Positions 1-18,644 of a stretch of 18,644 nt of DNA are shown piece by piece. Numbering within the stretch: the stretch's first letter is position 1; the number at the start of each line of letters is the position of its first letter. The DNA is taken from positions 1 to 18,644 of IMG/VR virus record IMGVR_UViG_2627853678_000002, one strand, 5' to 3'. The translations under genes were made by a program, and so were the position numbers. The notes beneath the pieces were generated by a model. The model was not told where the DNA came from. It was given only the letters and a program-made list of their open reading frames with translations, and made no database searches. Origin of the DNA: a virus (Duplodnaviria > Heunggongvirae > Uroviricota > Caudoviricetes).

Positions 1-2
1 CG

Positions 3-2580: not shown

Positions 2581-2635
2581 GATTGTGATAAAAAGTAAAT
2601 AATTAATATAATGCAATTGCTTGACTGTTTTAAAA

Positions 2636-2666
2636 GGGACAACGTAGTTGTGAACTATATTGTCCC
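2636..2666. terminator. possible bidirectional hairpin between the convergent 3' ends of gene A and the 351-aa gene
   Basis: Inverted repeat GGGACAA (2636-2642) / TTGTCCC (2660-2666) in AT-rich DNA; on the minus strand it is followed by TTTTAAAA. Stem is short and the loop long, so support is weak. Confidence 0.3.
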
Positions 2667-2673
2667 GGGAGTA

Positions 2674-3729
2674 TTAATTTTTAAATATGGATTGTATGTA
2701 TTCTATAGTGCTATCTTTAGCTCTGATGTCTTTTAAAGTGTTATTTATGAAATCTATTATTCTGTCATTACTTAATAGTGGCGATAACGCATAACATGTT
2801 GTTGTGAATGTCATGACGTCACTAAAGCTTAGTGAAACACCTTTTGTCGCAGCGTTCTCAATCGCAAGAGACTCATCAATATCTAAGTTTGTTGCTCTTG
2901 GCCCTTTAAGGAAGATAACTTTTGAAATCCCGGATGCAGATGCTTTTGAAACGGCGTGATTAACATCTTGATAATTAAATGGTTTGTCTTTCACTTCTAT
3001 AGAAAGGAAAACTATATCATCATGATATACATCTATGTCCAGTATCTCTTTTGAGGAGCTACCGGCCTGATTGACGGGATGTGCTTTTATTATCCATCCT
3101 CTTTGTTCACCTAATAAATGTAACGAAATTGCGGCAGCAATCGCGCATGTTTCTCCATCACAAGGATGAGATATAATATTATAAATAATCTTATGGAAAT
3201 CAAAATTAATTGAGTTCGGCGTTATAACTCTATTGGTTCGCTGTAGGGTAAAATATAATGCAATAACAAGCATTTCATAAGCTAAGGTTTGGGTTGTTGC
3301 TGCATGTAATATATCAATTGAAAGTTGTTGTAAAACCTTATCATTTCCTCTGCGCACAGGGTTATCAGAGGAGTGGAGCATGTAACGAGCTGGTTTATTT
3401 AGAAATGGCTCATTTGATGCGCCTAACTTACCCTCTAAAAATGGGCCTTCTACTTTGCCTACTATTACCGAATGACATAAACTTCTTGCATCATAGGCTC
3501 CGTCTACGGGGGCATTAGCTTGTAAAGCCAGAGGGTTTACTCTAGGGTCTGTTGCTTTTGCAAGTAAACCAGTAATAAGTATATATCTGTATGTAAGGTG
3601 GGTGCCTAAAATTACATTTTGAATGGAGACCCATTGATTATTTGTTTTGTAATCAGTTAATTTTTTTGCATCGTTGATTGCATTTATAATTACATTATAG
3701 GCTTGCTCATGATTTACTAATACTTTCAT
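2674..3729 (-). CDS. uncharacterised 351-aa protein; putative PD-(D/E)xK-type nuclease, candidate restriction/defence effector
   Basis: 351-codon ORF in AT-rich DNA with AAGGA 7-11 nt upstream of the ATG; its start overlaps the 3' end of the upstream HTH gene by 23 nt. Candidate motif ILDIDVYHDD-IVFLSIEVK (D238...E245-x-K247, about nt 2989-3018). No Walker A motif seen. Confidence 0.5.
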   Translation of the reverse strand: MKVLVNHEQAYNVIINAINDAKKLTDYKTNNQWVSIQNVILGTHLTYRYILITGLLAKATDPRVNPLALQANAPVDGAYDARSLCHSVIVGKVEGPFLEGKLGASNEPFLNKPARYMLHSSDNPVRRGNDKVLQQLSIDILHAATTQTLAYEMLVIALYFTLQRTNRVITPNSINFDFHKIIYNIISHPCDGETCAIAAAISLHLLGEQRGWIIKAHPVNQAGSSSKEILDIDVYHDDIVFLSIEVKDKPFNYQDVNHAVSKASASGISKVIFLKGPRATNLDIDESLAIENAATKGVSLSFSDVMTFTTTCYALSPLLSNDRIIDFINNTLKDIRAKDSTIEYIQSIFKN

Positions 3730-4021
3730 AGGTGTCCTTTAGTAAGATATCCATTGGTAGACCTAATCGGCTTGCAACCACCTCTAATAATTCAAATAGT
3801 TCTAAAGCATCTAATCGCCTTTCAAAGCTTTCGATTTTAGATATATCTGATTGTGATAATCCTAGAAAAATGGCCAATTCTGACTGCGAAAGAGAAGCTT
3901 CTTTGCGTAGTTTGGTGAGAAGCTGGACTAGGCACCTGTATCTATGATCATGTATAGTTGGTTGTCGTTTTGCCATGTGGTTTAGAAGGTGATTGATTGT
4001 GTGTCGATCCTTACCTATCAT
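3707..4021 (-). CDS. small helix-turn-helix (XRE-like) transcriptional regulator; candidate controller (C) protein
   Basis: HTH-like segment ASLSQSELAIFLGLSQSDISKIE; sits directly upstream of and overlapping the 351-aa gene and divergent from the methyltransferase. Start ambiguous: ATG at 4021 (104 aa) or ATG at 3976 (89 aa); neither has a clear SD. Confidence 0.7.
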   Translation of the reverse strand: MIGKDRHTINHLLNHMAKRQPTIHDHRYRCLVQLLTKLRKEASLSQSELAIFLGLSQSDISKIESFERRLDALELFELLEVVASRLGLPMDILLKDTYESISKS

Positions 4022-5151
4022 TGGTTTTATTCCAAAATCGAATAATTGGTGCTAAAGAAGTGAACAAAATTTCAGCGGTGAGCTTATTTACTGGGGCAGG
4101 AGGGATGGATGTCGGTTTCTCTAATGCCGGGTTCCGAACAGTTTGGGCCAATGATATAGATAAGGATGCATGTGATACATTTAAGCTTAATCATGAATCA
4201 CCTGTTTTTTGTGGTGATATTGATGAGATGCTAAGTGAATTGTCTGGGCTGAAAAATATAGGTTGTGTTTTTGGTGGGCCTCCATGCCAAGGATTTTCTG
4301 TGGCAGGGAAAATGGACGCTCATGATCCACGTAGTAAGCTGGTTATGTCATTCATGCGGGCGGTGGATATAATTCAACCAGAATGCTTTGTTATGGAGAA
4401 TGTTAAGGCTTTAGCACAGTTGTCCAAATTTGAACCAGTTAGGTGTGAACTGTTTAAGATGGCTGAAAAGTCAGGCTATCGTTCAGCCTTGCTGGTGCTG
4501 AATTCTAAAGATTTTGGCGTTCCTCAGAATAGGGAACGTATGTTTTTTATAGGGTTTCGTTCCGAAAATGATGTGAAACGAGTTGAGGCAGCGATAAAAA
4601 AATACCAATATCTTTCGCCAACAGTTGGTGAGATTATTCGGCCTTTAGGGCGAGCGGGTAATCCAAACAATTCAAGAGTCTGTAATGCAAGGATTACAAA
4701 TGCTGCTAAGCCAGTATTACGGAAGTCACCTTACGCGGGAATGATGTTTAACGGGCAGGGAAGACCAATTAACCCGAATGGGTATGCTTCAACTATAGCT
4801 GCTTCTATGGGGGGGAATAGGACACCAATTATTGATGAAGAACACCTTTATGATGGCTCAACAAGTTATGTTGAGACTTATCATAATCATCTAATGAATG
4901 GTGGTGAGCCAAAAGATATGCACGATGTACCTAGTCGTTTACGTCGACTAACGATAGATGAGGCTCTTTTGATTCAAACATTCCCGAGTAATTATGTCTT
5001 TGTGGGGAAAAATTCGTCAATTTGGCGTCAGATAGGGAATGCTGTGCCTTGTAAATTGGCGCAGGCTGTTGCTGCAGGGGTTTTGGATGTCCTTACTGGT
5101 AAAACTATTAATGTTCAAAAGAGTCAAACAGAGTTGAGTTTGAATTCGTAA
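3997..5151 (+). CDS. DNA (cytosine-5)-methyltransferase
   Basis: Canonical C5-MTase motifs in order: I LFTGAGGMDVGF, IV GGPPCQGFS (Cys codon at 4285-4287), VI FVMENV, VIII QNRERMFFIGF, then a variable region and X RQIGNAVP. The 3997 start is TTG preceded by AGAAGGTGA; an in-frame GTG at 4060 is an alternative. Confidence 0.9.
   Translation: MCVDPYLSLVLFQNRIIGAKEVNKISAVSLFTGAGGMDVGFSNAGFRTVWANDIDKDACDTFKLNHESPVFCGDIDEMLSELSGLKNIGCVFGGPPCQGFSVAGKMDAHDPRSKLVMSFMRAVDIIQPECFVMENVKALAQLSKFEPVRCELFKMAEKSGYRSALLVLNSKDFGVPQNRERMFFIGFRSENDVKRVEAAIKKYQYLSPTVGEIIRPLGRAGNPNNSRVCNARITNAAKPVLRKSPYAGMMFNGQGRPINPNGYASTIAASMGGNRTPIIDEEHLYDGSTSYVETYHNHLMNGGEPKDMHDVPSRLRRLTIDEALLIQTFPSNYVFVGKNSSIWRQIGNAVPCKLAQAVAAGVLDVLTGKTINVQKSQTELSLNS
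4027..4045. promoter_or_regulatory. palindromic operator-like element in the divergent control region
   Basis: Perfect inverted repeat TTATTC-N7-GAATAA, read directly from the sequence, between or overlapping the 5' ends of the HTH gene and the methyltransferase gene. Confidence 0.3.
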
Positions 5152-5307
5152 AACGGATCACATTTTCAAACCGATGGATGCAGAATTTAACATTGCTGCA
5201 TGAGTTTGCATCTTGAAATCATAAGCTGTACTGCTTGGCTTGACCAGAATTGATGTGGGTAAGAAGTGGTTATGCACCCGCATTAAAACCGCCCCATTAA
5301 GCGGGCG

Positions 5308-5326
5308 GGCGAGGCGGGGAAAGCAC
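5308..5326. other. cos: cos site (19-nt cohesive-end sequence of P2-type phages)
   Basis: GGCGAGGCGGGGAAAGCAC matches my recollection of the P2 cohesive end and lies where expected, between the right-end cargo and the 3' end of Q. Confidence 0.6.
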
Positions 5327-5468
5327 TGCGCGCTGGCGGTGGTGCTGATTTTATTTTTTCAGCGTCTGAGCGCGTCGTGAAGGCGTTTACTTGGCCTGCC
5401 AGGGCGTCGGTGTGTCTGCGGGCTGTTTTGCGCGGTGGTGAGCGTGTGAGGGCGTGATGGCAGGTTGT

Positions 5469-5490
5469 AAAAAAGCCGCCCGCAGGCGGC
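5469..5490 (-). terminator. rho-independent terminator downstream of the portal gene
   Basis: On the minus strand, GC-rich hairpin GCCGCC-TGCG-GGCGGC followed by TTTTTT, immediately after the Q stop at 5496. Confidence 0.55.
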
Positions 5491-5495
5491 GATGT

Positions 5496-6529
5496 TCAGT
5501 CGTTGTCAGTGTCCAGTGAGTAGTTTTTAAAGCGGATGACCTCCTGACCGAGCCAGCCGTTTATTTCCCGAATCCTGTCCTGTAACGGGATTAGCTCATT
5601 GCGGACAAAGACCTTTGCCACTTTCTCAATATCGCCCAGTGACCCGACGTTCTCCGGCTTGCCACCCATCAACTGAAAGGGGATGCGGTGTGCGTCCAGC
5701 AGGTCAGCGGCGCTGGCTTTTTTGATATTAAAAAAATCGTCCTTCGTCGCCACTTCACTGAGCGGGATAATTTTAATGCCGTCGGCTTTCCCCTGCGGGG
5801 CATAGAGAAACAGGTTTTTAAAGTTGTTGCGGCCTTTTGACTTCACCATGTTTTCGCGAAGCATTTCGATATCGTTGCGATCCTGCACGGCATCGGTAAC
5901 GTACATGATGTATCCGGCATGTGCGCCGTTTTCGTAATACTTGCGGCGGAACAGCGTGGCCGACTCATTCAGCCAGGCAGAGTTAAGGGCGCTGAGATAT
6001 TCCGGCAGACCGTACAGCTCCTGATTAATATCCGGCTCCAGCAGGTGAAACACGGAGCCGGGCGCGAAAGGTGTCGGCTCGTTAAAGGACGGCACCCACC
6101 AGTAAACATCCTCTTCCACACCACGGCGGGTATATTTTGCCGGTGAGGTTTCCAGCCTGATAACTTTACCGGTGGTGCTGTAACGCTTTTCCAGAAACGC
6201 ATTACCGAACACCAGAAAATCCAGCACAAAGCGGCTGAAATCCTGCTGAGAAAGCCACGGATGCGGGATAAATGTCGAGGCCAGAATATTGCGTTTAACG
6301 TAAATCGGCGAGCTGTGATGCACGGCAGCACGCAGGCTTTTTGCCAGACCGGTAAAGCTGACCGGCGGCTCATACCATCTGCCGTTACTGATGCACTCGA
6401 CGTAATCCAGAATGTCACGGCGGTCGAGTACCGGCACCGGCTCACCAAAGGTGAATGCTCCATTTTCGGGGCGCTGGCGGTCATTGTTTTTGCCACAGGT
6501 TGCGGTGTTTTCCCTTTTTTCTTGCTCAT
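5496..6529 (-). CDS. Q: portal protein gpQ, interrupted by an apparent 1-nt frameshift near 6457-6460
   Basis: Two minus-strand ORFs in different frames (5969..6529 starting MSKKKGKTPQ, and 5496..6437) together span 344 codons, the length of P2 gpQ. The first starts in a TGATG overlap with the terminase stop. Frame switches between ...APKME and AFTFGEPVPVLDRR. Confidence 0.8.
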
Positions 6530-8301
6530 CAGTAAAACTCCAGAATGGTGGATGTCAGCGGGGTGCTGATACCGGCGGTGAGTGGCTCATTTAACAGGGC
6601 GTGCATGGTCGCCCAGGCGAGGTCGGCGTGGCTGGCTTCCTCGCTGCGGCTGGCCTCATAGGTGGCGCTGCGTCCGCTGCTGGTCATGGTCTTGCGGATA
6701 GCCATAAACGAGCTGGTGATGTCGGTGGCGCTGACGTCGTATTCCAGACAGCCACGGCGGATAACGTCTTTTGCCTTGAGCACCATTGCGGTTTTCATTT
6801 CCGGCGTGTAGCGGATGTCGCGCGCGGCAGGATAGAACGAGCGCACGAGCTGGAACACGCCGACACCGAGGCCGGTGGCATCAATACCGATGTATTCGAC
6901 GTTGTATTTTTCGGTGAGTTTGCGGATGGATTCCGCCTGGGTGGCAAAGTCCATGCCTTTCCACTGGTGACGCTCAAGTATTCTGAATTTGCCACCGGCA
7001 ACCACCGGCGGTGCCAGTACCACGCATCCGGCGCTGTCGCCACGGTGTGACGGGTCGTAACCAATCCAGACCGGGCGTGAGCCGAACGGATTGGCGGCAA
7101 ACGGCGCATAGTCTTCCCATTCTTCCAGCGTGTCGACCATGCAGCGTTGCAACTCCTCGAACGGGAACACCGACGCCTTGTCGTCAACAAATTCACACAT
7201 GAACAGGTTTTTAAAATCGTCGGCGCTGTTTTCGCGTTTGAGCTGCTCAATGTCGAACAGCGTGCAGCCGCCTTTCAGGGCGTCCTCAATGGTGACAATC
7301 TGCCGCCACTGGCCGTCCGCACAGAGAAGACCTCCGGCAAGTGCGTTATGACTGACGTCGATTTCCACGCGTTCAGCGGCGCTGGCGCGTCCCCGGTTAA
7401 ACAGTTCACCCGACCAGAACGGGTAGGCGTCGTGCGCCAGCGTGGACGGGGTGGAGAAATAGGTCGAACGCAGGTGACTCTGTGAGGCCATACCTGATGC
7501 CACCTTACGCAGTACCTGAAAATTCGGGATCCAGAAAATCTCATCGACGTACAGGTCGCCGTTATGGCTCTGCGCGGTGTTGGAGTTGGTGCCGAGAAAA
7601 ATCAGTTTTGCGCCGTTATTGCCCAGGACAATCGGGTCACCGGTCAGGTCAACGTCAACCAGACGGGCAAAGGCGATGATGTATTCGCGGAACACATACG
7701 CCTGCGTTTTACTGGCCGACAGAAAAATCTGGTTATGGCCGGTTTTCAGGGCGCGCAGCAGCGCCTCGCGGGAAAAATAAAACGTTGCGCCAATCTGGCG
7801 GGATTTCAGGATATCGCGGATGCGGTGCTCAAGCCCGGCGCGATACCAGTGCAACTGATATTCGAAAGACTGCTCAAAGAAAATCTGCTCCAGCTTTTCG
7901 ATGGCTTCGTCGCTGAAAAAATTCTTTTTCGGTTTGCGGCGCCCGCCTTTGTTGCGGTTAGCGACGTTCGGATTAAGGTCTGCCTCGTTGCCGGTCTGAC
8001 TGTAGCGGTTGACCCGCGCCAGCCGTTCAATCTGGCGTCCCAGCAGGTCAATTTCCTTGAAGTCACCGCCGGTTTTCTGCGGTTTGATGATGAGCTGGGT
8101 CAGCCGCGCTTCCAGACTCATTTCGACACGGCTGATGGGGGCAACGCTGTCCCAGCCGTCGCGCTGTTTCCAGCTCTGCACCGTCGGGCGTTTCATCTGC
8201 AACATGGCGGCAATCTGCGGCACGGAAAACCCCTGCCAGTACAGCAGCGCCGCCTGACGACGCGGGTCGTGTAAAAGAGTGGTGTCTGTGGTGATGGTCA
8301 T
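6529..8301 (-). CDS. P: terminase large (ATPase) subunit gpP
   Basis: 600-codon ORF; ATG at 8301 with GAGG upstream gives 590 aa (MTITTDTTLL...), the size of P2 gpP; it is followed directly by the portal gene as in P2. Confidence 0.9.
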   Translation of the reverse strand: MTITTDTTLLHDPRRQAALLYWQGFSVPQIAAMLQMKRPTVQSWKQRDGWDSVAPISRVEMSLEARLTQLIIKPQKTGGDFKEIDLLGRQIERLARVNRYSQTGNEADLNPNVANRNKGGRRKPKKNFFSDEAIEKLEQIFFEQSFEYQLHWYRAGLEHRIRDILKSRQIGATFYFSREALLRALKTGHNQIFLSASKTQAYVFREYIIAFARLVDVDLTGDPIVLGNNGAKLIFLGTNSNTAQSHNGDLYVDEIFWIPNFQVLRKVASGMASQSHLRSTYFSTPSTLAHDAYPFWSGELFNRGRASAAERVEIDVSHNALAGGLLCADGQWRQIVTIEDALKGGCTLFDIEQLKRENSADDFKNLFMCEFVDDKASVFPFEELQRCMVDTLEEWEDYAPFAANPFGSRPVWIGYDPSHRGDSAGCVVLAPPVVAGGKFRILERHQWKGMDFATQAESIRKLTEKYNVEYIGIDATGLGVGVFQLVRSFYPAARDIRYTPEMKTAMVLKAKDVIRRGCLEYDVSATDITSSFMAIRKTMTSSGRSATYEASRSEEASHADLAWATMHALLNEPLTAGISTPLTSTILEFY

Positions 8302-8474
8302 GAATACCTCGCCGTGATGAATACACGGCAAGGCTACTGAGTCGCGCCCCGCGATTCGCTAAGGTGCTGTTGTGTCAGTGATAAGCCATCCGGGACTGAT
8401 GGCGGAGGATGCGTATCGTCGGGAAACTGATGCCGACATGTGACTCCTCTAATCACTATTCAGGACTCCTGACA
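8302..8474. promoter_or_regulatory. divergent control region between P/Q (minus) and the O-N-M-L operon (plus); presumed late promoters
   Basis: 173-bp non-coding gap between divergent starts; contains dyad GTGA-N9-TCAC at about 8440-8456. No exact TGT-N12-ACA element was found, so promoter positions are not assigned. Confidence 0.3.
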
Positions 8475-9329
8475 ATGGCAAAAAAAGTCTCAAAATTCTT
8501 TCGTATCGGCGTTGAGGGTGACACCTGTGACGGGCGTGTCATCAGTGCGCAGGATATTCAGGAAATGGCCGAAACCTTTGACCCGCGTGTCTATGGTTGC
8601 CGCATTAACCTGGAACATCTGCGCGGCATCCTGCCTGACGGTATTTTTAAACGTTATGGCGATGTGGCAGAACTGAAGGCCGAAAAGATTGACGATGATT
8701 CGGCGCTGAAAGGCAAATGGGCGCTGTTTGCGAAAATCACCCCGACCGATGACCTTATCGCGATGAACAAGGCCGCGCAGAAGGTCTACACCTCAATGGA
8801 AATTCAGCCGAACTTTGCCAACACCGGCAAATGTTATCTGGTGGGGCTGGCCGTCACCGATGACCCGGCAAGCCTCGGTACGGAATACCTGGAATTCTGC
8901 CGCACGGCAAAACACAACCCTCTGAACCGCTTCAAATTAAGCCCTGAAAACCTGATTTCAGTGGCAACGCCCGTTGAGCTGGAATTTGAAGACCTGCCTG
9001 AAACCGTGTTCACCGCCCTGACCGAAAAGGTGAAATCCATTTTTGGCCGCAAACAGGCCAGCGATGACGCCCGTCTGAATGACGTGCATGAAGCGGTGAC
9101 CGCTGTTGCTGAACATGTGCAGGAAAAACTGAGCGCCACTGAGCAGCGCCTCGCTGAGATGGAAACTGCCTTTTCCGCTCTTAAGCAGGAGGTGACTGAC
9201 AGGGCGGATGAAACCAGCCAGGCATTCAGCCGCCTGAAAAACAGTCTCGACAACACCGAAAGTCTGACCCAGCAGCGCCGCAGCAAGGCCACCGGCGGTG
9301 GCGGTGACGCCCTGATGACGAACTGCTGA
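8475..9329 (+). CDS. O: capsid scaffolding protein gpO
   Basis: Translation from MAKKVSKFFRIGVEGDTCDGR is 284 aa and matches the remembered P2 gpO; AGGA lies 9-12 nt upstream of ATG 8475. The ORF-track start at 8409 is judged a spurious upstream extension. Confidence 0.9.
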   Translation: MAKKVSKFFRIGVEGDTCDGRVISAQDIQEMAETFDPRVYGCRINLEHLRGILPDGIFKRYGDVAELKAEKIDDDSALKGKWALFAKITPTDDLIAMNKAAQKVYTSMEIQPNFANTGKCYLVGLAVTDDPASLGTEYLEFCRTAKHNPLNRFKLSPENLISVATPVELEFEDLPETVFTALTEKVKSIFGRKQASDDARLNDVHEAVTAVAEHVQEKLSATEQRLAEMETAFSALKQEVTDRADETSQAFSRLKNSLDNTESLTQQRRSKATGGGGDALMTNC

Positions 9330-9387
9330 CCGGCGTCAGCCAGTCCGGGAAAACCTTCACGATTAACCCTTAATTTCAGGAAAAACT

Positions 9388-10460
9388 ATGCGCCAGGAAA
9401 CCCGCTTTAAATTTAATGCCTACCTGTCCCGTGTTGCCGAACTGAACGGCATCGACGCCGGTGATGTGTCGAAAAAATTCACCGTTGAACCGTCGGTCAC
9501 CCAGACCCTGATGAACACCATGCAGGAGTCCTCTGACTTTCTGACCCGCATCAACATTGTGCCGGTCAGCGAAATGAAAGGGGAAAAAATTGGTATTGGT
9601 GTCACCGGCTCCATCGCCAGCACCACCGACACCGCCGGTGGCACCGAGCGTCAGCCGAAGGACTTCTCGAAGCTGGCGTCCAGTAAGTACGAATGCGACC
9701 AGATTAACTTCGATTTTTATATCCGCTACAAAACGCTGGACCTGTGGGCGCGTTATCAGGATTTCCAGCTCCGTATCCGTAACGCCATTATCAAACGCCA
9801 GTCCCTTGATTTCATCATGGCCGGTTTTAACGGCGTGAAGCGTGCCGAAACCTCTGACCGCAACAGCAATCCGATGTTGCAGGATGTGGCGGTCGGCTGG
9901 CTGCAGAAATACCGCAATGAAGCCCCGGCGCGCGTGATGAGCAAGGTCACTGACGAGGAAGGCCGCACCACCTCTGAGGTTATCCGCGTGGGTAAGGGCG
10001 GTGATTATGCCAGCTTGATGCACTGGTGATGGATGCGACCAACAACCTGATTGAGCCGTGGTATCAGGAAGACCCTGACCTTGTGGTGATTGTGGGGCGT
10101 CAGTTACTGGCGGACAAGTATTTCCCCATCGTTAACAAGGAGCAGGACAACAGCGAAATGCTGGCCGCTGACGTCATCATCAGCCAGAAACGCATCGGTA
10201 ACCTGCCGGCGGTACGCGTCCCGTACTTCCCGGCGGATGCGATGCTCATCACGAAGCTGGAAAACCTGTCCATCTACTACATGGATGACAGTCATCGCCG
10301 CGTGATTGAGGAAAACCCGAAACTTGACCGCGTGGAGAACTACGAGTCAATGAACATTGATTACGTGGTGGAAGACTACGCCGCCGGTTGTCTGGTGGAA
10401 AAAATTAAGGTCGGTGATTTCTCCACACTGGCTAAAGCGACCGCAGAGCCGGGAGCGTAA
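9388..10460 (+). CDS. N: major capsid protein gpN, interrupted by an apparent 1-nt frameshift near 10015-10019
   Basis: ORFs 9388..10029 (MRQETRFKFNAYLSRV...GGDYASL) and 10026..10460 (MDATNNLIEPWYQ...AEPGA) are adjacent frames of one capsid gene; the second frame reads LDALVMDATNN upstream of its listed start. Confidence 0.85.
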
Positions 10461-10463
10461 CCG

Positions 10464-11207
10464 ATGACGAGTCCCGCACAGCGCCACATGATGCGGGTCT
10501 CGGCAGCGATGACCGCGCAGCGGGAAGCCGCCCCGCTGCGACATGCAACTGTCTATGAGCAGATGCTGGTTAAGCTCGCCGCAGACCAGCGCACACTGAA
10601 AGCGATTTATTCAAAAGAGCTGAAGGCCGCGAAAAAACGCGAACTGCTGCCGTTCTGGTTGCCGTGGGTGAACGGCGTGCTGGAGCAGGGCAAAGGTGCA
10701 CAGGATGACATTCTGATGACGGTCATGCTGTGGCGTCTGGATACCGGCGATATTGCCGGTGCGCTGGAGATTGCCCGTTACGCCCTGAAGTACGGCCTGA
10801 CCATGCCGGGTAAACACCGCCGCACCCCGCCGTACATGTTCACCGAGGAGGTGGCGCTCGCGGCCATGCGCGCTCACGCTGCCGGTGAGTCTGTGGATCC
10901 CCGCCTGCTGACGGACACCCTCGAACTGACCGCCACGGCTGACATGCCTGATGAAGTGCGCGCAAAGCTGCACAAAATCACCGGTCTGTTTCTGCGTGAC
11001 GCTGGTGATGCCGCAGGTGCGCTGGCGCACCTGCAACGTGCGACACAGCTCGACTGTCAGGCAGGCGTCAAAAAAGAGATTGAACGACTGGAGCGGGAGC
11101 TGAAACCGAAGCCGGAGCCGCAGCCCAAAGCGGCCACCCGCGCCCCGCGTAAGACCCGGAGCGTGACACCGGCAAAACGTGGACGCCCGAAAAAGAAAGC
11201 CAGTTAA
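10464..11207 (+). CDS. M: terminase small subunit gpM
   Basis: 247-aa ORF in the gpM position and size; basic Lys/Pro-rich C-terminal tail. Confidence 0.85.
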   Translation: MTSPAQRHMMRVSAAMTAQREAAPLRHATVYEQMLVKLAADQRTLKAIYSKELKAAKKRELLPFWLPWVNGVLEQGKGAQDDILMTVMLWRLDTGDIAGALEIARYALKYGLTMPGKHRRTPPYMFTEEVALAAMRAHAAGESVDPRLLTDTLELTATADMPDEVRAKLHKITGLFLRDAGDAAGALAHLQRATQLDCQAGVKKEIERLERELKPKPEPQPKAATRAPRKTRSVTPAKRGRPKKKAS

Positions 11208-11306
11208 CAACCGAATGCGCCCCGCGCCAGGGCGGCACGCCGGTCAGTGAGGGTGAATCACCTGACGCTGTACCGGCGTCCACCGCCCGACTTTTCAGAG
11301 GTAGTC

Positions 11307-11816
11307 ATGATGACGCTGATTATTCCGCGAAAGGAGGCTCCCGTGTCCGGTGAGGGTACGGTGGTCATCCCGCAACCGGCAGGCGACGAGCCGGTGATTA
11401 AAAACACGTTCTTTTTTCCCGATATCGACCCGAAGCGCGTCCGGGAACGTATGCGACTTGAGCAGACCGTCGCCCCCGCCCGTCTGCGTGAGGCCATCAA
11501 GTCAGGCATGGCGGAGACGAATGCGGAGCTGTACGAGTACCGCGAACAGAAAATTGCTGCCGGTTTTACGCGTCTGGCGGACGTTCCGGCGGACGACATC
11601 GACGGTGAAAGTATCAAAGTTTTTTACTACGAGCGCGCCGTGTGTGCGATGGCGACCGCGTCGCTTTATGAGCGTTATCGCGGCGTGGATGCCAGTGCGA
11701 AAGGGGACAAGAAGGCCGACAGCATTGACAGCACCATTGATGAGTTGTGGCGGGATATGCGCTGGGCAGTGGCGCGCATCCAGGACAAGCCGCGCTGCAT
11801 CGTGAGTCAAATCTGA
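11307..11816 (+). CDS. L: head completion/stabilisation protein gpL
   Basis: Start at ATG 11307 (MMTLIIPRKEAP, GAGG upstream) gives 169 aa as in P2 gpL; the stop overlaps the X start. Confidence 0.8.
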   Translation: MMTLIIPRKEAPVSGEGTVVIPQPAGDEPVIKNTFFFPDIDPKRVRERMRLEQTVAPARLREAIKSGMAETNAELYEYREQKIAAGFTRLADVPADDIDGESIKVFYYERAVCAMATASLYERYRGVDASAKGDKKADSIDSTIDELWRDMRWAVARIQDKPRCIVSQI

Positions 11817-12019
11817 TGAAGACCTTTGCGCTACAGGGCGACACGCTCGACGCCATTTGTGTCCGGTATTACGGGCGCACTGAGGGCGTGGTCGAGGCCG
11901 TGCTCGCCGCAAATCCGGGACTGGCTGAACTGGGTGCGGTGCTGCCGCACGGCACCGCCGTCGAACTGCCCGACGTTCAGACCGCGCCCGTGGCTGAAAC
12001 TGTCAATCTGTGGGAGTAA
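11816..12019 (+). CDS. X: tail protein X
   Basis: 67-aa product from ATG 11816 (MKTFALQGDTLDAICVRYYG...), the size and position of P2 gpX. Confidence 0.75.
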   Translation: MKTFALQGDTLDAICVRYYGRTEGVVEAVLAANPGLAELGAVLPHGTAVELPDVQTAPVAETVNLWE

Positions 12020-12022
12020 CGC

Positions 12023-12304
12023 ATGACAGCAGAAGAAAAAAGCGTCCTGTCGCTTTTCATGATTGGGGTGCTGATTGTTGTCGGCAAGGTGCTTGCCGGT
12101 GGTGAATCCATCACCCCGCGTCTGTTTATCGGGCGCATGTTACTCGGTGGTTTTGTCTCGATGGTTGCCGGTGTTGTTCTGGTGCAGTTTCCTGACCTGT
12201 CACTGCCTGCGGTGTGCGGCATCGGCTCCATGCTGGGTATCGCCGGTTATCAGGTGATTGAGATTGCCATTCAGCGCCGCTTTAAGGGCAGGGGGAAACC
12301 GTAA
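12023..12304 (+). CDS. Y: holin gpY
   Basis: 93-aa protein with hydrophobic transmembrane segments and a charged C-terminus (RRFKGRGKP); first gene of the lysis cassette. Confidence 0.8.
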   Translation: MTAEEKSVLSLFMIGVLIVVGKVLAGGESITPRLFIGRMLLGGFVSMVAGVVLVQFPDLSLPAVCGIGSMLGIAGYQVIEIAIQRRFKGRGKP

Positions 12305-12801
12305 TGCCGGTTATTAACACGCATCAGAATATCGCCGCCTTTCTCGACATGCTGGCCGTGTCCGAAGGGACGGCAAACCATCCGCTGACGAAAAACCGGG
12401 GCTATGACGTGATAGTCACCGGACTGGACGGGAAGCCGGAAATTTTCACCGACTACAGTGACCACCCGTTCGCACATGGCCGACCGGCGAAGGTGTTTAA
12501 CCGTCGCGGTGAAAAATCCACGGCCTCCGGTCGCTATCAGCAGCTTTACCTGTTCTGGCCGCATTACCGCAAACAGCTTGCCCTGCCGGATTTCAGTCCG
12601 TTGTCACAGGACAGACTTGCCATTCAGTTGATCCGCGAACGCGGTGCACTGGATGACATCCGGGCGGGACGCATTGAGCGCGCCATTTCACGCTGTCGCA
12701 ATATCTGGGCGTCCCTGCCGGGTGCCGGTTACGGTCAGCGTGAGCATTCACTGGAAAAACTGGTCACCGTCTGGCGTACCGCTGGCGGCGTACCGGCTTA
12801 A
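12304..12801 (+). CDS. K: endolysin gpK
   Basis: 165-aa ORF starting in a TAATG overlap with the Y stop; position and length match P2 gpK. Confidence 0.85.
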   Translation: MPVINTHQNIAAFLDMLAVSEGTANHPLTKNRGYDVIVTGLDGKPEIFTDYSDHPFAHGRPAKVFNRRGEKSTASGRYQQLYLFWPHYRKQLALPDFSPLSQDRLAIQLIRERGALDDIRAGRIERAISRCRNIWASLPGAGYGQREHSLEKLVTVWRTAGGVPA

Positions 12802-12815
12802 ACGGAGTAAACACC

Positions 12816-13241
12816 ATGAAGAAATTATCCCTTTCACTGATGCTGAACGTGTCGCTGGCGCTGATGCTGGCACTGTCCCTGATTTACCCGCAGAGCGTGG
12901 CCGTCAGTTTTGTCGCTGTCTGGGCGATTCTGGCGACGGTTATCTGTGTGGTTGCCGGTGGTGTCGGCGTGTATGCCACAGAGTATGTACTGGAACGCTA
13001 CGGGCGGGAGCTGCCGCCGGAATCGCTGGCCGTGAAGATTGTCGCATCGCTGTTTTTGCAGCCGGTGCCGTGGCGCAGACGGGCAGTGGCTCTGGTGGTG
13101 ATGGTGACGACGTTTATCTCGCTGGTCGCTGCCGGGTGGATTTTTACCGCGCTGATTTATCTCGTGGCGTCGCTGTTCTTCCGGCTGATACGTACGGCCT
13201 GCCGTCAGCGTTTTGAGGGGCGGGAACCATGTCAAAGCTGA
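12816..13241 (+). CDS. lysA: lysis accessory membrane protein LysA
   Basis: 141-aa strongly hydrophobic protein following K, as in P2. Confidence 0.7.
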   Translation: MKKLSLSLMLNVSLALMLALSLIYPQSVAVSFVAVWAILATVICVVAGGVGVYATEYVLERYGRELPPESLAVKIVASLFLQPVPWRRRAVALVVMVTTFISLVAAGWIFTALIYLVASLFFRLIRTACRQRFEGREPCQS

Positions 13242-13654
13242 TGACTGTGCTGGTCGTGTTGTTATCGCTGGCGGTGGCGGGGCTGTTTCTGGCGAAGCAT
13301 GAAAACGCCAGCCTGCGCGCCTCGCTGGACAGGGCGAACAACGTCGCCAGTGAACAGCAGACGACCATCACCATGCTGAAAAACCAGCTTCATGTTGCAC
13401 TCACCAGGGCAGATAAAAACGAGCTGGCGCAGGTGGCACTGCGTCAGGAACTGGAAAACGCCGCGAAGCGTGAAGCACAGCGCGAGAAAACCATCACGAG
13501 GTTACTTAATGAAAACGAAGATTTTCGCCGCTGGTACGGTGCTGACCTGCCTGATGCTGTGCGCCGGTTGCACCAGCGCCCGGCCTGCGCCGACGCCAGT
13601 GATTGTCCACAACGCCTGCCCGAAAGTGAGTCTTTGCCCGATGCCGGGCAGTGA
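13229..13654 (+). CDS. lysB: LysB, Rz-like inner-membrane spanin
   Basis: 141 aa with an N-terminal transmembrane segment and a coiled-coil-like periplasmic region. Confidence 0.75.
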   Translation: MSKLMTVLVVLLSLAVAGLFLAKHENASLRASLDRANNVASEQQTTITMLKNQLHVALTRADKNELAQVALRQELENAAKREAQREKTITRLLNENEDFRRWYGADLPDAVRRLHQRPACADASDCPQRLPESESLPDAGQ

Positions 13655-13799
13655 CCCGGAGACGAACGGCGATTTAAGTGCCGATATCCGGCAGCTTGAG
13701 AACGCGCTGGCACGCTGTGCCAGCCAGGTAAAAATGATTAAACACTGTCAGGATGAAAACTATGCTCAAACCCGACAGCCTGCGCAGGGCGCTGACTGA
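13509..13799 (+). CDS. lysC: LysC, Rz1-like outer-membrane lipoprotein spanin, nested in the +1 frame of lysB
   Basis: 96-aa product from ATG 13509 with signal peptide and lipobox LMLCAGC; embedded in and extending past lysB. Confidence 0.7.
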   Translation: MKTKIFAAGTVLTCLMLCAGCTSARPAPTPVIVHNACPKVSLCPMPGSDPETNGDLSADIRQLENALARCASQVKMIKHCQDENYAQTRQPAQGAD

Positions 13800-14229
13800 T
13801 GCCGTCACGGTGCTGAAAACCAGTCCCGAGATGCTGCGGATATTCGTGGATAACGGGAGTATTGCCTCCACACTGGCGACGTCGTTGTCATTCGAAAAGC
13901 GTTACACGCTCAATGTCATTGTGACCGACTTTACCGGTGATTTTGACCTGCTCATTGTGCCGGTGCTGGCGTGGCTGCGGGAAAATCAGCCCGACATCAT
14001 GACCACCGACGCAGGCCAGAAAAAGGGCTTCACATTTTATGCAGACATCAACAATGACAGCAGCTTTGATATCAGTATCAGCCTGATGCTGACCGAGCGC
14101 ACGCTGGTCAGTGAGGTGGACGGCGCGCTGCATGTGAAGAATATCCCGGAACCTCCGCCGCCGGAGCCGGTCACCCGCCCGATGGAGCTGTATATCAATG
14201 GCGAACTGGTGAGCAAGTGGGATGAATGA
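13762..14229 (+). CDS. R: tail completion protein gpR
   Basis: 155 aa from ATG 13762 (MLKPDSLRRALTDAV...); an in-frame ATG at 13753 is an alternative start. Confidence 0.8.
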   Translation: MLKPDSLRRALTDAVTVLKTSPEMLRIFVDNGSIASTLATSLSFEKRYTLNVIVTDFTGDFDLLIVPVLAWLRENQPDIMTTDAGQKKGFTFYADINNDSSFDISISLMLTERTLVSEVDGALHVKNIPEPPPPEPVTRPMELYINGELVSKWDE

Positions 14230-14680
14230 GTTTAAGCGTTTTGAAGACCGGCTGACCGGACTGATTGAATCGCTGTCACCGTCAGGGCGTCGGCGACTGG
14301 CGGTAGATATTGCGAAGAAGCTGCGCCAGCGCCAGCAGCAGCGAATTAAATTACAAAAAGCCCCGGATGGTACGCCGTATGTACCGAGAAAAAACCAACC
14401 AGTACGAAATAAGAAAGGCCGGATAAAGCGGGAAATGTTTGTGAAATTACGCACTAACCGGTTTATGAAAGCAACAGGTAGCGAGAGTGCGGCGGTGGTG
14501 GCGTTTGCCAGCGGAGTACAACGAATTGCGCGAGTACATCAATTAGGGCTTAGGGATAAGCCGGGGCGTAATAGTGCTGTGGTGGAATATCCTGTTCGCG
14601 AGTTATTTGGTTTTGACAAGGAATCTATACAATTGATAGAAAGGGAGTTATTAGTGATTCTATCGAAAGATGTTATATGA
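14222..14680 (+). CDS. S: tail completion protein gpS (3' third is more AT-rich, possibly mosaic)
   Basis: 152 aa beginning MNEFKRFEDRLTGLIESLSP in the gpS position; its stop overlaps the next start in ATGA. Confidence 0.8.
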   Translation: MNEFKRFEDRLTGLIESLSPSGRRRLAVDIAKKLRQRQQQRIKLQKAPDGTPYVPRKNQPVRNKKGRIKREMFVKLRTNRFMKATGSESAAVVAFASGVQRIARVHQLGLRDKPGRNSAVVEYPVRELFGFDKESIQLIERELLVILSKDVI

Positions 14681-14973
14681 GACGGGTGTTTGTGGATAAA
14701 AAGTTTTCCATTTTGAGAAAAAGAGTAAAGCATTCTCAAAAGAAAGTTATGGATTGTATTATTGCTGACCATAATGCTGATATATGTGTGTTATGCGGGA
14801 GTTCTGACGATATTACTCGTGAGCACATTATTCCTCAGTGGGCCTTTGAGTCAAATGCTGAAAAATCTTTAATTAATAAAAAGAATAATCAGTCAACTCA
14901 TTACATTAAAGCCACTGTACCAGCATGCAGAGTGTGCAATTCTGATTTGCTGGGAGTGTTTGAGTATACCTGA
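14677..14973 (+). CDS. small HNH-endonuclease-like protein (cargo in the S-V variable locus)
   Basis: 98-aa ORF in AT-rich DNA with an HNH/His-Me-finger-like pattern: CVLC ... REHIIPQW ... NKKNN ... H ... CRVCN. Confidence 0.6.
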   Translation: MRRVFVDKKFSILRKRVKHSQKKVMDCIIADHNADICVLCGSSDDITREHIIPQWAFESNAEKSLINKKNNQSTHYIKATVPACRVCNSDLLGVFEYT

Positions 14974-15041
14974 AGAAATTTCTTACGGAAAAGAGGGGAG
15001 AGGAGTTAACAGATTATGAGTATGATTGCATCATATGGTGG

Positions 15042-15431
15042 TTGCAATACATGGGTTTTAAGTTGCAATTAATGGATTTGCGGAACCGCTTTCTCAGGTA
15101 TAAAGGTGGTGATTATATCCCGTTCCTTGCAAACTTTCCGGTTGCAATGTTTTGGGGGAATGTCGATACGACGCCGGGGGATGTCTTCAGGATTATACGA
15201 AAATCGCGACGCAATCTGATGTCGAAATGGAAGGATAAAAAACATAATTCTTTGATGGTTTTTGAAACATCAAACAAGAGTTTTCATTTCTTTCATAAGG
15301 TTGATGAATTTATTTTTATTGAAATGCCTCAGGTTAAGAAGGCGTTTTTCTTCTTTTTTAATAAAGAATTTGACAGCCATGATTTAGCTCATGAGGAGTG
15401 TATGAAGATTATAGAGAAGTGCTACAACTAA
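15042..15431 (+). CDS. hypothetical protein (cargo in the S-V variable locus)
   Basis: 129-codon ORF in AT-rich DNA, where an open frame of this length is unlikely by chance; the listed start is TTG and ATG at 15051 (GGTGG upstream) is more likely. No motif recognised. Confidence 0.5.
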   Translation: MQYMGFKLQLMDLRNRFLRYKGGDYIPFLANFPVAMFWGNVDTTPGDVFRIIRKSRRNLMSKWKDKKHNSLMVFETSNKSFHFFHKVDEFIFIEMPQVKKAFFFFFNKEFDSHDLAHEECMKIIEKCYN

Positions 15432-15508
15432 TATTTATTATGTTGTATCACAGCTGACAGAATCCTCCATGATTGCTGCTGGTATCGTCCAGCGGCATCC
15501 TTCCCGTT

Positions 15509-16143
15509 ATGAACACTCTCGCAAATATTCAGGAACTCGCGCGCGCACTGCGCAATATGATTCGCACCGGCATTATCGTCGAAACCGACCTTAACGCCGG
15601 TCGCTGCCGTGTGCAGACCGGCGGCATGTGCACCGACTGGTTGCAGTGGCTGACTCATCGTGCTGGGCGTTCGCGCACATGGTGGGCACCTTCCGTGGGG
15701 GAACAGGTGCTGATTCTGTCCGTGGGCGGCGAACTCGACACGGCGTTTGTTCTGCCGGGGATTTATTCCGGCGATAACCCTGCGCCGTCTGCGTCGGCGG
15801 ATGCCCTGCATATCCGTTTCCCTGACGGGGCGGTGATTGAGTATGAACCCGAAACCAGTGCACTCACGGTAAGCGGAATTAAAACGGCCAGCGTGACGGC
15901 TTCTGATTCTGTTACTGCCACGGTGCCGGTGGTCATGGTGAAAGCATCAACCGCGTCACTCTGGACACGCCGGAGGTGGTCTGCACAAACAGGCTGATCA
16001 CCGGCACGCTGGAAGTGCAGAAGGGCGGGACGATGCGCGGCAACATTGAACACACCGGCGGTGAACTCTCATCAAACGGGAAGGTACTGCATACCCATAA
16101 ACACCCCGGCGACAGCGGCGGCACAACCGGGAGTCCTCTATGA
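15509..16143 (+). CDS. V: baseplate assembly/spike protein gpV, interrupted by an apparent 1-nt frameshift near 15951-15953
   Basis: Translation from ATG 15509 (MNTLANIQELARALRNMIRTG...) matches the remembered P2 gpV; the frame terminates at 15997, while the adjacent frame continues RVTLDTPEVVCTNRLITGTLEVQKGG...GSPL to a stop overlapping the W start. Confidence 0.8.
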
Positions 16144-16487
16144 CAGCGCGTTATCTCGGAATGAATCGCAGTGATGGCCTGACTGTCTCTGACCTTGAGC
16201 ATATCAGCCAGAGTATCGGCGATATCCTGCGCACGCCGGTCGGCTCACGGGTGATGCGTCGTGATTACGGCTCGTTGCTGGCGTCAATGATTGACCAACC
16301 GCAGACCCCGGCGCTTGAGTTGCAGATTAAGGTCGCCTGTTACATGGCGGTGCTGAAATGGGAACCCCGCGTCACCCTGTCATCCGTCACTACGGCGCGC
16401 AGTTTTGACGGGCGAATGACGGTCACGTTAACCGGCCAGCACAACGACACCGGCCAGCCACTTTCGTTAACCATCCCTGTGAGTTGA
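16140..16487 (+). CDS. W: baseplate wedge protein gpW
   Basis: 115-aa ORF in the gpW position and size. Confidence 0.85.
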   Translation: MTARYLGMNRSDGLTVSDLEHISQSIGDILRTPVGSRVMRRDYGSLLASMIDQPQTPALELQIKVACYMAVLKWEPRVTLSSVTTARSFDGRMTVTLTGQHNDTGQPLSLTIPVS

Positions 16488-16491
16488 AACC

Positions 16492-17400
16492 ATGCCGATT
16501 ATCGACCTGAACCAGCTACCCGCACCGGATGTGGTCGAGGAGCTGGACTTTGAAACCATTCTCGCTGAACGCAAGGCGACACTGATTTCCCTTTACCCGG
16601 AAGACCAGCAGGAGGCGGTCGCCCGTACCCTGACGCTGGAATCCGAGCCTCTCGTCAAACTGCTGGAGGAAAATGCTTATCGTGAGCTTATCTGGCGTCA
16701 GCGTGTGAATGAGGCCGCACGGGCGGTGATGCTGGCCTGTGCCGCCGGTAATGACCTTGATGTTATTGGTGCCAATTACAACACCACGCGCCTGATTATC
16801 ACCCCGGCAGATGATTCGACCATCCCGCCGACACCGGCAGTAATGGAATCTGACACGGATTATCGTCTGCGTATTCAGCAGGCGTTTGAAGGTTTAAGCG
16901 TCGCCGGGTCGGTGGGTGCCTATCAGTATCATGGCCGCAGTGCTGACGGGCGTGTCGCGGATATCTCTGTCACCAGTCCGTCTCCGGCCTGTGTCACCAT
17001 CTCTGTGCTGTCACGTGAAAATAACGGTGTCGCTTCCGAAGACTTGCTGGCGGTGGTGCGTAACGCCCTTAATGGCGAGGACGTCAGGCCGGTGGCCGAC
17101 CGCGTGACCGTGCAGTCTGCCGCCATTGTTGAATATCAGATAAACGCCACGCTTTACCTTTACCCTGGTCCCGAAAGCGAACCCATCCGCGCTGCTGCCG
17201 TGAAAAAACTGGAAGCGTATATCACGGCACAGCACCGGCTGGGGCGCGACATCCGTCTGTCTGCCATTTATGCCGCTTTGCATGTGGAGGGCGTGCAGCG
17301 TGTCGAGCTGGCCGCACCACTGGCCGACATCGTGCTCAACAGTACGCAGGCGTCTTTCTGTACCGAATACCGCGTCGTGACCGGAGGCTCGGATGAGTGA
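16492..17400 (+). CDS. J: baseplate protein gpJ
   Basis: 302-aa ORF in the gpJ position and size. Confidence 0.85.
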   Translation: MPIIDLNQLPAPDVVEELDFETILAERKATLISLYPEDQQEAVARTLTLESEPLVKLLEENAYRELIWRQRVNEAARAVMLACAAGNDLDVIGANYNTTRLIITPADDSTIPPTPAVMESDTDYRLRIQQAFEGLSVAGSVGAYQYHGRSADGRVADISVTSPSPACVTISVLSRENNGVASEDLLAVVRNALNGEDVRPVADRVTVQSAAIVEYQINATLYLYPGPESEPIRAAAVKKLEAYITAQHRLGRDIRLSAIYAALHVEGVQRVELAAPLADIVLNSTQASFCTEYRVVTGGSDE

Positions 17401-18004
17401 TTCGCGCCTGCTGCCGACCGGCTCATCACCGCTTGAAATTGCTGCCGCGAAAGCCTGTGCGGAAATTGAAAAAACGCCGGTCAGTATTCGTGAGCTGTGG
17501 AACCCGGACACCTGCCCGGCAAATCTGCTGCCGTGGCTGGCGTGGGCCTTTTCGGTCGACAGGTGGGATGAAAAGTGGCCGGAAGCGACAAAACGCGCCG
17601 TTATCCGCGATGCCTATTTCATCCACTGTCATAAGGGTACTGTCGGCGCAATCCGGCGTGTTGTGGAGCCGCTCGGCTATCTGATTGAAGTGAGGGAGTG
17701 GTGGCAGCTCAACGAGGAGCCGGGGACGTTCCGTATCGTTGTTGGCGTGCTTGAGCAGGGTATTACCGAAGAAATGTATCTGGAGCTGGAACGTCTCGTT
17801 GCTGATGCAAAACCGGCGAGCCGCCATCTGACGGGACTGGCTATCAGTTTAAGTACAACCGGCAACATTTTTGCCGGAACGGGATGCTATCACGGTGACG
17901 CCCTGATGGTTTATCCCTACACCCCGGAGGCCATTATTGTCGGAGGGGATTATTTCCCGGCCTCGGTCATTCATTTAATTGATAACCTGAGAGTAAACGC
18001 ATGA
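17393..18004 (+). CDS. I: baseplate/tail protein gpI
   Basis: 203-aa ORF whose N-terminal part (MSDSRLLPTGSSPLE...) matches the remembered P2 gpI; the C-terminus is longer and different. Confidence 0.8.
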   Translation: MSDSRLLPTGSSPLEIAAAKACAEIEKTPVSIRELWNPDTCPANLLPWLAWAFSVDRWDEKWPEATKRAVIRDAYFIHCHKGTVGAIRRVVEPLGYLIEVREWWQLNEEPGTFRIVVGVLEQGITEEMYLELERLVADAKPASRHLTGLAISLSTTGNIFAGTGCYHGDALMVYPYTPEAIIVGGDYFPASVIHLIDNLRVNA

Positions 18005-18644
18005 CAGTGAAATACTACGCCATTCTGACTAATCAGGGCGCAGCACGACTGGCTAACGCGACGATGCTCGGCAGTAAGCTGAATCTGACGCAAATGGCCG
18101 TTGGTGATGCGAATGGTGTATTACCGACACCAGACCCGGCACAGACAAAACTGATTAACCAGAAACGCATTGCACCGCTGAATCTTCTGAGTGTTGACCC
18201 TAACAATCAGAGCCAGATTATTGCGGAGCAAATTATCCCTGAAAACGAGGGAGGATTCTGGATCCGTGAGATTGGGCTTTATGATGATGAAGGCGTACTC
18301 ATTGCGGTGGCGAACTGCCCGGAAACGTACAAACCGCAGTTGCAGGAAGGCAGTGGTCGTACCCAGACTATCCGCATGATTCTGGTTGTCTCGAATACCG
18401 AAGCCATCACGCTGAAAATCGACCCGTCGGTGGTACTGGCGACCCGTAAATATGTGGATGACAAAATCTCAGAACACGAACAGTCACGACGACACCCGGA
18501 TGCATCGCTGACCGCAAAAGGTTTTACTCAGTTAAGCAGCGCAACCAACAGCACGTCTGAAACACTGGCCGCAACGCTGAGAGCGGTAAAGGTCGCGTAT
18601 GATCTTGCTAACGGGAAATATACTGCACAGGACGCGACCACAGC
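18001..18644 (+). CDS. H: tail fibre protein gpH, N-terminal part (runs off the window end)
   Basis: Open frame from ATG 18001 (ATGA overlap with the I stop) to the window end, translated by hand: MTVKYYAILTNQGAARLANAT...EHEQSRRHPDASLTAKGFTQLSSATNSTSETLAAT, tail-fibre-like. Not in the ORF track because it has no stop. Confidence 0.8.
   Translation, partial: MTVKYYAILTNQGAARLANATMLGSKLNLTQMAVGDANGVLPTPDPAQTKLINQKRIAPLNLLSVDPNNQSQIIAEQIIPENEGGFWIREIGLYDDEGVLIAVANCPETYKPQLQEGSGRTQTIRMILVVSNTEAITLKIDPSVVLATRKYVDDKISEHEQSRRHPDASLTAKGFTQLSSATNSTSETLAATLRAVKVAYDLANGKYTAQDATT

Follow-up and report, generated by a model that had tools for sequence, protein, structure and literature searches.

A 129-codon reading frame between genes S and V of a P2-like prophage is very probably the 3'-part of a single 246-aa gene with an HNH-like motif

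Results

Genes and features of the S-V region

The stretch of DNA analysed here, 18,644 nucleotides in length and referred to as the window, is a P2-like (Peduovirus) prophage with the gene order replication gene A, SacI-type restriction-modification cassette, portal, terminase, scaffold, capsid, lysis, R, S, an accessory gene, V, W, J, I and tail fibre (Table 1). An exact sequence match showed it to be identical to the contig under NCBI accession number JXRF01000142.1 (GCA_000832005.1), and positions 12551..17931 are identical to locus L068. The tin/old hotspot between gene A and the portal gene (2674..5151) holds a type II restriction-modification cassette, as annotated by RefSeq in the identical region of Escherichia coli MS 124-1.

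Table 1 Features of the window, with positions counted from its first nucleotide.
Feature	Position	Strand	Detail	Basis
SacI-family endonuclease	2674..3729	-		RefSeq annotation
Small HTH controller	about 3707..3976	-		RefSeq annotation
Cytosine-5 methyltransferase	3997..5151	+		RefSeq annotation
One-base deletion, portal gene (5496..6529)	6457		CC to C	Comparison with MS 124-1
One-base deletion, major capsid gene (9388..10460)	10013		CC to C	Comparison with MS 124-1
Gene S (tail completion / virion morphogenesis)	14222..14680	+		ORF list, RefSeq annotation of the MS 124-1 prophage, Pfam Phage_tail_S
5'-part of the accessory gene	14692..14967	+	HNH-like domain (CxxC, EH, N, CxxCN)	Homology, RefSeq annotation
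Site of one-base deletion	14967..14968	.		R18C alignment, MS 124-1 comparison, sequence of a further relative
3'-part of the accessory gene, shifted frame	14968..15431	+	Stop-free from 14964	Homology, profile, model
129-aa ORF	15042..15431	+	TTG start	ORF list
FFFFF run	15345..15359	+	TTT TTC TTC TTT TTT, in predicted beta-strand 222-227 of the four-stranded sheet	AF2 model
Candidate late-promoter element of the V operon	15441..15459	+	TGTTGTATCACAGCTGACA	Position in the 77-nt spacer before V
Baseplate gene V	15509..16143	+	Frameshifted in the window at 15950	Downstream neighbour
One-base deletion, baseplate gene V	15950		CCC to CC	Comparison with MS 124-1

Genes S and V are separated by an AT-rich island of 0.75 kb, the GC content of which is 31-43% versus 55-65% in the flanks. 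In this island a 129-codon ORF of cargo DNA had been predicted from the sequence alone (the original prediction), and both the ORF and its AT-rich surroundings are present as described. The description as cargo was borne out, as the location is the orf30 moron site of P2-like phages (PMC6823313). The poly-Phe motif ascribed to a T-rich run at about 15341-15370 was likewise found, namely as KKAFFFFFNKEF within the 129-aa translation (coding bases 15336..15371), with the run itself, GCG TTT TTC TTC TTT TTT, at 15342..15359. The longest stop-free stretch within 14677..15431 is 155 codons; among 5000 mononucleotide shuffles, 39 contained an open stretch of at least 129 codons and 4 one of at least 156 codons, and a stretch of 155 codons is thus uncommon at such a composition.

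The limits first given to the ORF are wrong. Its frame opens as early as 14964, and the 26 codons that precede the TTG (YLKKFLTEKRGEELTDYEYDCIIWW) also align with the homologous protein, such that the TTG at 15042 is merely the first start-like codon past a stop. Upstream lies an ORF of 98 aa (14677..14973), considered to encode an HNH protein, which meets a premature TGA at 14971..14973. Two starts can be considered for this 5'-frame, a GTG at 14692 chosen by RefSeq, which is 12 nt after S, and an ATG at 14677 that overlaps the stop codon of S (ATGA).

No significant match to the 129-aa ORF was obtained in scans of Pfam, NCBIfam or PADLOC. It had been described as belonging to no recognisable family, yet its 129 residues match the PHROG family phrog_10503 (E = 1.3e-89) at profile positions 123-251 of 251.

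The two frames are a single gene in the relatives

The phage R18C aligned with the window at 14600..15520 with 99.1% nucleotide sequence identity (megablast of phage genomes), the two segments being 922 and 921 bases long, respectively. The sole gap in this alignment is at 14967, where the relatives have TATAACC and the window, lacking one A, has TATACC. In R18C a single CDS of 741 nt, ORF16/gp15 (YP_009883387.1, QDP43509.1), covers the whole island, and its 246-aa product starts as the product of the 98-aa ORF does and ends as the product of the 129-aa ORF does. It is the same gene as in the window, located at the same S-V position and of the same length once the base is restored, but the copy in the window is one base short and reads as two ORFs. 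The intact R18C protein belongs to phrog_10503 (E = 1.3e-176, profile positions 7-251). An equivalent gene, a single 246-aa CDS (WP_235639334.1) with 99.9% DNA identity over the gene, is found at the same place in E. coli MS 124-1. Among the 40 matches listed in complete E. coli genomes, 39 were segments of 756 bp versus the 755-bp query.

The same arrangement was seen in the wider family. A search of 5.8 billion proteins returned 44 matches, and 36 of these, 245-252 aa long and 41-98% identical, align over the entire query and are collinear across the junction. The clusters of the intact form contain 547 and 104 sequences, the latter also taking in some partial or truncated entries, and those of truncated forms contain 23, 5 and 1.

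Thus, the 129-codon ORF is very probably the C-terminal part of a single 246-aa gene, hereafter the accessory gene, that is split in the contig by the one-base deletion at 14967. It accounts for about 52% of that gene, or about 63% if the open frame from 14964 is counted, and the entire 3'-part encodes the remainder of the helix following the HNH-like domain and a conserved alpha/beta C-terminal domain. The 129-aa half is therefore functionally tied to the HNH part and, as the relatives have one frame, it is not an independent gene whether the split is an error or a mutation.

Origin of the deletion at 14967

Positions 84..18644 of the window are collinear with the finished MS 124-1 chromosome, from which they differ by 2 substitutions and 4 one-base deletions. 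All four deletions, the one at 14967 and those at 6457, 10013 and 15950, lie in runs of 2-3 identical bases. Each breaks a gene, accessory, portal, major capsid or V, that is intact in the near-identical finished genome. As the deletions are twice as numerous as the substitutions and each disrupts a gene intact in MS 124-1, the deletion at 14967 is most likely a sequencing, assembly or consensus error, and taken together the four deletions indicate a low-quality consensus for the contig.

If instead the frameshift were real, the accessory, portal, capsid and V genes would be decaying pseudogenes of a defective prophage and the 129-aa ORF a dead remnant. The prophage of MS 124-1 is already defective, carrying an IS21-family insertion in the tape-measure gene as well as tail-fibre-assembly pseudogenes, and genuine-looking disruptions (a W116-stop, other run-length frameshifts, truncations) occur in other alleles of the accessory gene. 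Against this, a natural mutation spectrum would show the opposite of four one-base deletions to two substitutions over 18.6 kb, the 84-nt IS end of the window contains a further two indels, and all four genes are intact in the finished genome, which is otherwise identical. A real mutation is considered distinctly unlikely.

The contig is labelled E. coli O139:H28 str. E24377A, and the only near-identical complete genome is that of MS 124-1. Indeed, among 5426 complete E. coli genomes the best match to the window was MS 124-1, at 100.0% as reported, followed by one at 97.8%. This may cast doubt on the strain label or on how pure the assembly is. Positions 1..84 match the end of an ISEc12 copy (IS21 family) with two indels; this IS end adjoins a DUF5405 gene upstream of replication gene A, whereas in MS 124-1 ISEc12 interrupts the tape-measure gene. 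The arrangement here could stem from another copy of the IS, from a rearrangement or from a chimeric contig end.

Other disrupted alleles of the accessory gene were observed. In E. coli FORC_082 (locus L066) a G5 to G4 change causes a frameshift and most of V is lost, and further alleles include the W116-stop, a double G-run frameshift and a truncated form with a tail resembling an insertion junction. The accessory gene appears to be dispensable and recurrently inactivated.

The split examined as two genes or as a functional frameshift

The original prediction took the 129-aa ORF to be a possible partner of the HNH protein, conferring specificity or immunity, the HNH protein then being the separate product of the 98-aa ORF. 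Two ORFs are indeed present in the window and GGTGG is found 9 nt before an in-frame ATG at 15051, the resulting 126-aa product being annotated in a few assemblies. However, seven contigs carry this 126-aa call, and the upstream half is disrupted in three of them (the window, the nonsense allele and the double frameshift), while the remaining four match the gene only from a point at or near the contig end. The TTG start would fall within a predicted helix (residues 113-136 of the AF2 model), every non-truncated homologue is one ORF, and in R18C, MS 124-1 and each of the 36 full-length homologues listed the supposed partners are one polypeptide. Nor does a conserved second gene stand beside the distant homologues, and a two-gene module of nuclease and immunity or specificity protein was rejected. 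An independent gene is hence very improbable.

Programmed ribosomal frameshifting, by which both frames would be joined and the split would be functional, can practically be dismissed, since the two adjacent frames are the only point in its favour, no slippery heptamer is present at GAG TAT ACC TGA and all relatives encode the protein in one frame.

Motifs and predicted structure of the encoded protein

The authors who described R18C reported no motif in the 741-bp ORF (PMC6823313). In the present alignment of 42 sequences, sharing from about 20 to 70% identity, the residues C, C, E, H, P, W, C, C and N are invariant, as is a Trp in the following helix, and the first nine are invariant in three further family alignments too. 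In R18C numbering, the invariant positions include C32, C35, E44, H45, N65, C79, C82 and N83. The N-terminal half thus displays, at the motif level, the signature of a putative zinc-stabilised His-Me finger (HNH-type) nuclease, CxxC...EH...CxxCN.

Profile searches placed the protein at the margin of known families. Pfam HNH_5 (PF14279) was the top match in 33 of 33 members examined, with a best E-value of 6.4e-5, and the matches covered only profile positions 1-21; none of the 33 reached the gathering threshold of 27.5 bits, their scores ranging from 16 to 25 bits. The 98-aa ORF scored 18.4 bits and the joined protein 16.1-16.5 bits. A profile search of 1.84 billion representative proteins gave 35 matches below 1e-30, the complete ones being about 245-290 aa long, followed by about 800 proteins, many 300-360 aa in length, with similarity confined to positions 25-135. 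In sequence profile searches of the PDB, the full-length family had no match at E up to 10 and the profile of the N-terminal superfamily had only non-significant motif matches to HNH domains.

The AF2 model is a single compact globule (pLDDT 85, pTM 0.87). From the N-terminus it shows two helices, a strand at 46-50 with the E-H pair, a less confident loop, a strand at 80-84 and a helix at 85-105 starting with CxxCN, the HNH-like part having the predicted beta-beta-alpha order. A helix at 113-136, a basic helix at 167-182, a four-stranded sheet at 193-227 and a C-terminal helix follow. Fold searches of the PDB and BFVD returned nothing significant, and the C-terminal alpha/beta domain had no detectable relative in them. 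This half has a conserved helix and four-stranded sheet, and the positions kept in it across the wider family are mostly hydrophobic or basic, none being an invariant residue of catalytic appearance; it is therefore read as a domain that would serve a structural, nucleic acid-binding or regulatory function in cis.

In the model the poly-Phe run forms a strand of the sheet. Its motif across the homologues is A-[FL]-F-x-F-[FLY], the Phe codons varying between TTT and TTC and some positions being occupied by L, H or Y. The T-rich run had also been proposed as a potential slippage site, an idea at odds with the protein-level conservation, the synonymous changes and the constant length of the run, no indel being seen there in any allele or assembly examined. 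No notable repeat or slippery site was found at the frameshift or at the T-run. According to the model, the poly-Phe segment is a conserved beta-strand of the hydrophobic core and no slippage site.

Selection on the accessory gene

A dN/dS estimate across homologues was among the checks suggested by the original prediction. The synonymous sites are saturated in all but one near-identical pair, for which reason dN/dS is usable for that pair only and pN and pS are given for the others. Between enterobacterial pairs pN was 0.14-0.30 versus pS of 0.78-0.98, with similar values for residues 1-92 and for residues 118-246, the latter being the part encoded by the 129-aa ORF; purifying selection along the whole gene is thus indicated. 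The near-identical pair, the window and R18C, gave a dN/dS of about 0.22. The intact gene is a real coding sequence under purifying selection, and the homologues keep its reading frame, the case of no homologue with a conserved frame having been named as adverse to the prediction. As to the reality of the 129-codon ORF as a gene, which had been left to confirm, the frame is coding, conserved and under purifying selection, but it is no gene of its own.

Position in P2-like prophages and transcription

Conservation and synteny of the ORF beside the HNH gene, also suggested as a check, proved to hold in part: P2-like prophages from seven enterobacterial genera share the S-V position, but both halves are one gene and there is no separate HNH neighbour. 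A Phage_tail_S gene lies upstream of every P2-like homologue, and the loci from a soil metagenome, Klebsiella, Enterobacter, Yersinia and Kluyvera have the gene directly after Phage_tail_S and before Phage_base_V. In Klebsiella P2-like prophages (loci L007-L009, 6926..7576) a 216-aa gene without a Pfam match lies on the opposite strand between the accessory gene and V; therefore the S-V site can hold more than one cargo gene.

The gene occupies the orf30 position in a minority of P2-like phages. It was found in 77 of 5426 complete E. coli genomes, P2-like DNA being present in 3300, and in a collection of 50,697 phage records only R18C (two records) carries it, as judged by tblastn with the 251-aa protein. 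P2-type phages of the collection matched the queries from this region in gene V only and not in the accessory gene (megablast, tblastn).

The accessory gene (67-70%) has diverged about as much as the neighbouring S (63-72%). Every P2-like phage examined has a GC content of 33-37% in this gene and of 53-60% in the phage flanks. As synonymous sites between homologues are saturated, the low GC content must be maintained and is not the trace of a recent transfer; selection (e.g. H-NS silencing) or repeated exchange with an AT-rich pool might account for it.

In P2, a late promoter is located in front of V. A search for the late-promoter motif upstream of V gave TGTTGTATCACAGCTGACA as the single match, which was not above chance; a similar TGTTGT-type sequence, TGTTGTGTCA, lies upstream of gene O. 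TGTTGTATCACAGCTGACA may be the late-promoter element of the V operon. Signals for a promoter or terminator belonging to the accessory gene itself did not exceed the shuffled expectation. Since the gene starts 12 nt after S, has no promoter or terminator signal of its own and is followed by the probable V promoter, it probably closes the late P...S operon, the place taken by orf30 in P2.

Homologues outside P2-like phages

Full-length homologues of about 40% identity, none in a P2 context, were found in Vibrio, Photobacterium, Shewanella, Halomonas, Psychromonas, Paraglaciecola, Bacteroidota, Desulfobacteria and one Gracilibacteria genome. A conserved partner gene was sought beside 24 diverse homologues, and no neighbour family was present in more than two loci. 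The neighbours of distant homologues include Mrr_cat (an Mrr-type restriction nuclease), RES, DUF4365, an SF1 helicase, a lambda-type portal and two adjacent tyrosine recombinases (Phage_integrase with Phage_int_SAM_4) that look integron-like. The short metagenomic contigs of two remote relatives offered no informative neighbourhood. In Leucothrix (locus L029, 3434..4939) and Paraglaciecola (locus L035, 3247..4309) the homologue adjoins a divergently oriented tyrosine recombinase with Phage_int_SAM_4 and Phage_integrase, which suggests an integron-cassette-like context for the family.

Discussion

The accessory gene is already known from R18C. P2-like phages have three moron regions, in one of which the 741-bp hypothetical ORF of R18C was reported to replace the 261-bp orf30 of P2 (PMC6823313). 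With orf30 it shares the insertion site, the AT-rich accessory character and probably the place at the end of the late P operon; the sequences are unrelated and orf30 is one third the length. It is a moron without an assigned function in any family member: searches of the literature for the accessions, the PHROG identifier and single-gene HNH defence found no study of the protein, and the surveys of P2-like hotspots found there concentrate on tin/old and Z/fun and cover neither the S-V site nor the protein.

The closest comparison is with HNH_5-type nucleases, including the Septu-like PtuB, with which the protein shares the layout CxxC...(D/E)H...CxxCN and a predicted beta-beta-alpha core. It differs from them by a 34-residue insert between the catalytic-type His and the second CxxC. 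Septu consists of the ATPase PtuA and the HNH protein PtuB, whereas the accessory gene has no partner ATPase and, in P2-like loci, is adjoined by S and V. The PADLOC model PDC-M01B, a Septu-like HNH component, gave weak matches in 10 of 24 diverse members (best E-value 7.4e-6), below the curated cut-offs. The protein of the window type matched the HMM of the Septu-like HNH component with E = 0.04, and no PtuB model was matched. None of the known defence systems in PADLOC was matched at a significant level. In published data, PDC-M01 calls fall together with Septu (PMC11811056). Nucleases of the PF14279 type are common both in integron cassettes (PMC7370490) and in ATPase-nuclease defence pairs (PMC11464382).

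A further likeness, a lead only and without a sequence or fold match, is to the zinc His-Me finger of the T4 endonuclease VII type. That type has, as is predicted here, a four-Cys zinc site, an acidic residue followed by His on the first strand and an Asn directly after the second CxxC as the likely metal ligand.

A self-contained nuclease against competing phage or other foreign DNA is a plausible reading of the intact gene and is put forward tentatively, with somewhat less than even confidence. The gene would be read at the end of the late P...S operon, and the C-terminal domain of its product would control or target the HNH domain in cis; the nuclease would probably be directed against competing phages or other mobile DNA. 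Expression from a late operon would be unusual for a defence gene protecting the lysogen and counts against a defence role.

A more specific proposal, which must be regarded as rather doubtful, is that the protein is a solo PtuB-like His-Me finger nuclease acting as a single-gene conflict system. The C-terminal alpha/beta domain would then replace the sensing or gating by the partner ATPase, and the low GC content could reflect selection for xenogeneic silencing of a toxic nuclease. The gene would reside at the third, little-studied moron site (S-V) in P2-like phages and elsewhere in integron-like or defence-island contexts.

The main functional rival to a conflict nuclease is a free-standing HNH homing endonuclease, which would cut the empty S-V junction and spread by repair during co-infection. 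The HNH-type motif, the presence of a single gene at the same site between conserved structural genes across diverged P2-like phages, its presence/absence polymorphism in E. coli, its AT-rich composition and its placement in a late operon are all consistent with homing, as is a weak PADLOC 'HEase' match in one of 24 members. However, Pfam disclosed no accessory DNA-binding module (NUMOD, IENR1, AP2 and the like) in 33 members. The divergence that tracks that of the flanking S, together with the saturated synonymous sites, suggests long residence and not recent spread, and the homologues of about 40% identity lie in unrelated, non-phage, defence-like contexts. Homing therefore seems unlikely, and we retain the tentative reading of a nuclease used in conflict.

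The locus is a cautionary case, as a low-quality draft contig made one gene look like two ORFs and the idea of a partner protein rested on that split. The underlying gene represents a conserved HNH-like family of about 250 residues at a recognised accessory site of P2-like phages, with more distant members in the variable regions of numerous soil and marine bacteria. For experimental work the intact family is a reasonable candidate but not a striking one. If its product is indeed a self-contained nuclease in phage-phage competition, the S-V site would join tin/old and Z/fun as a source of such functions, which would be a modest extension of a well-known theme.
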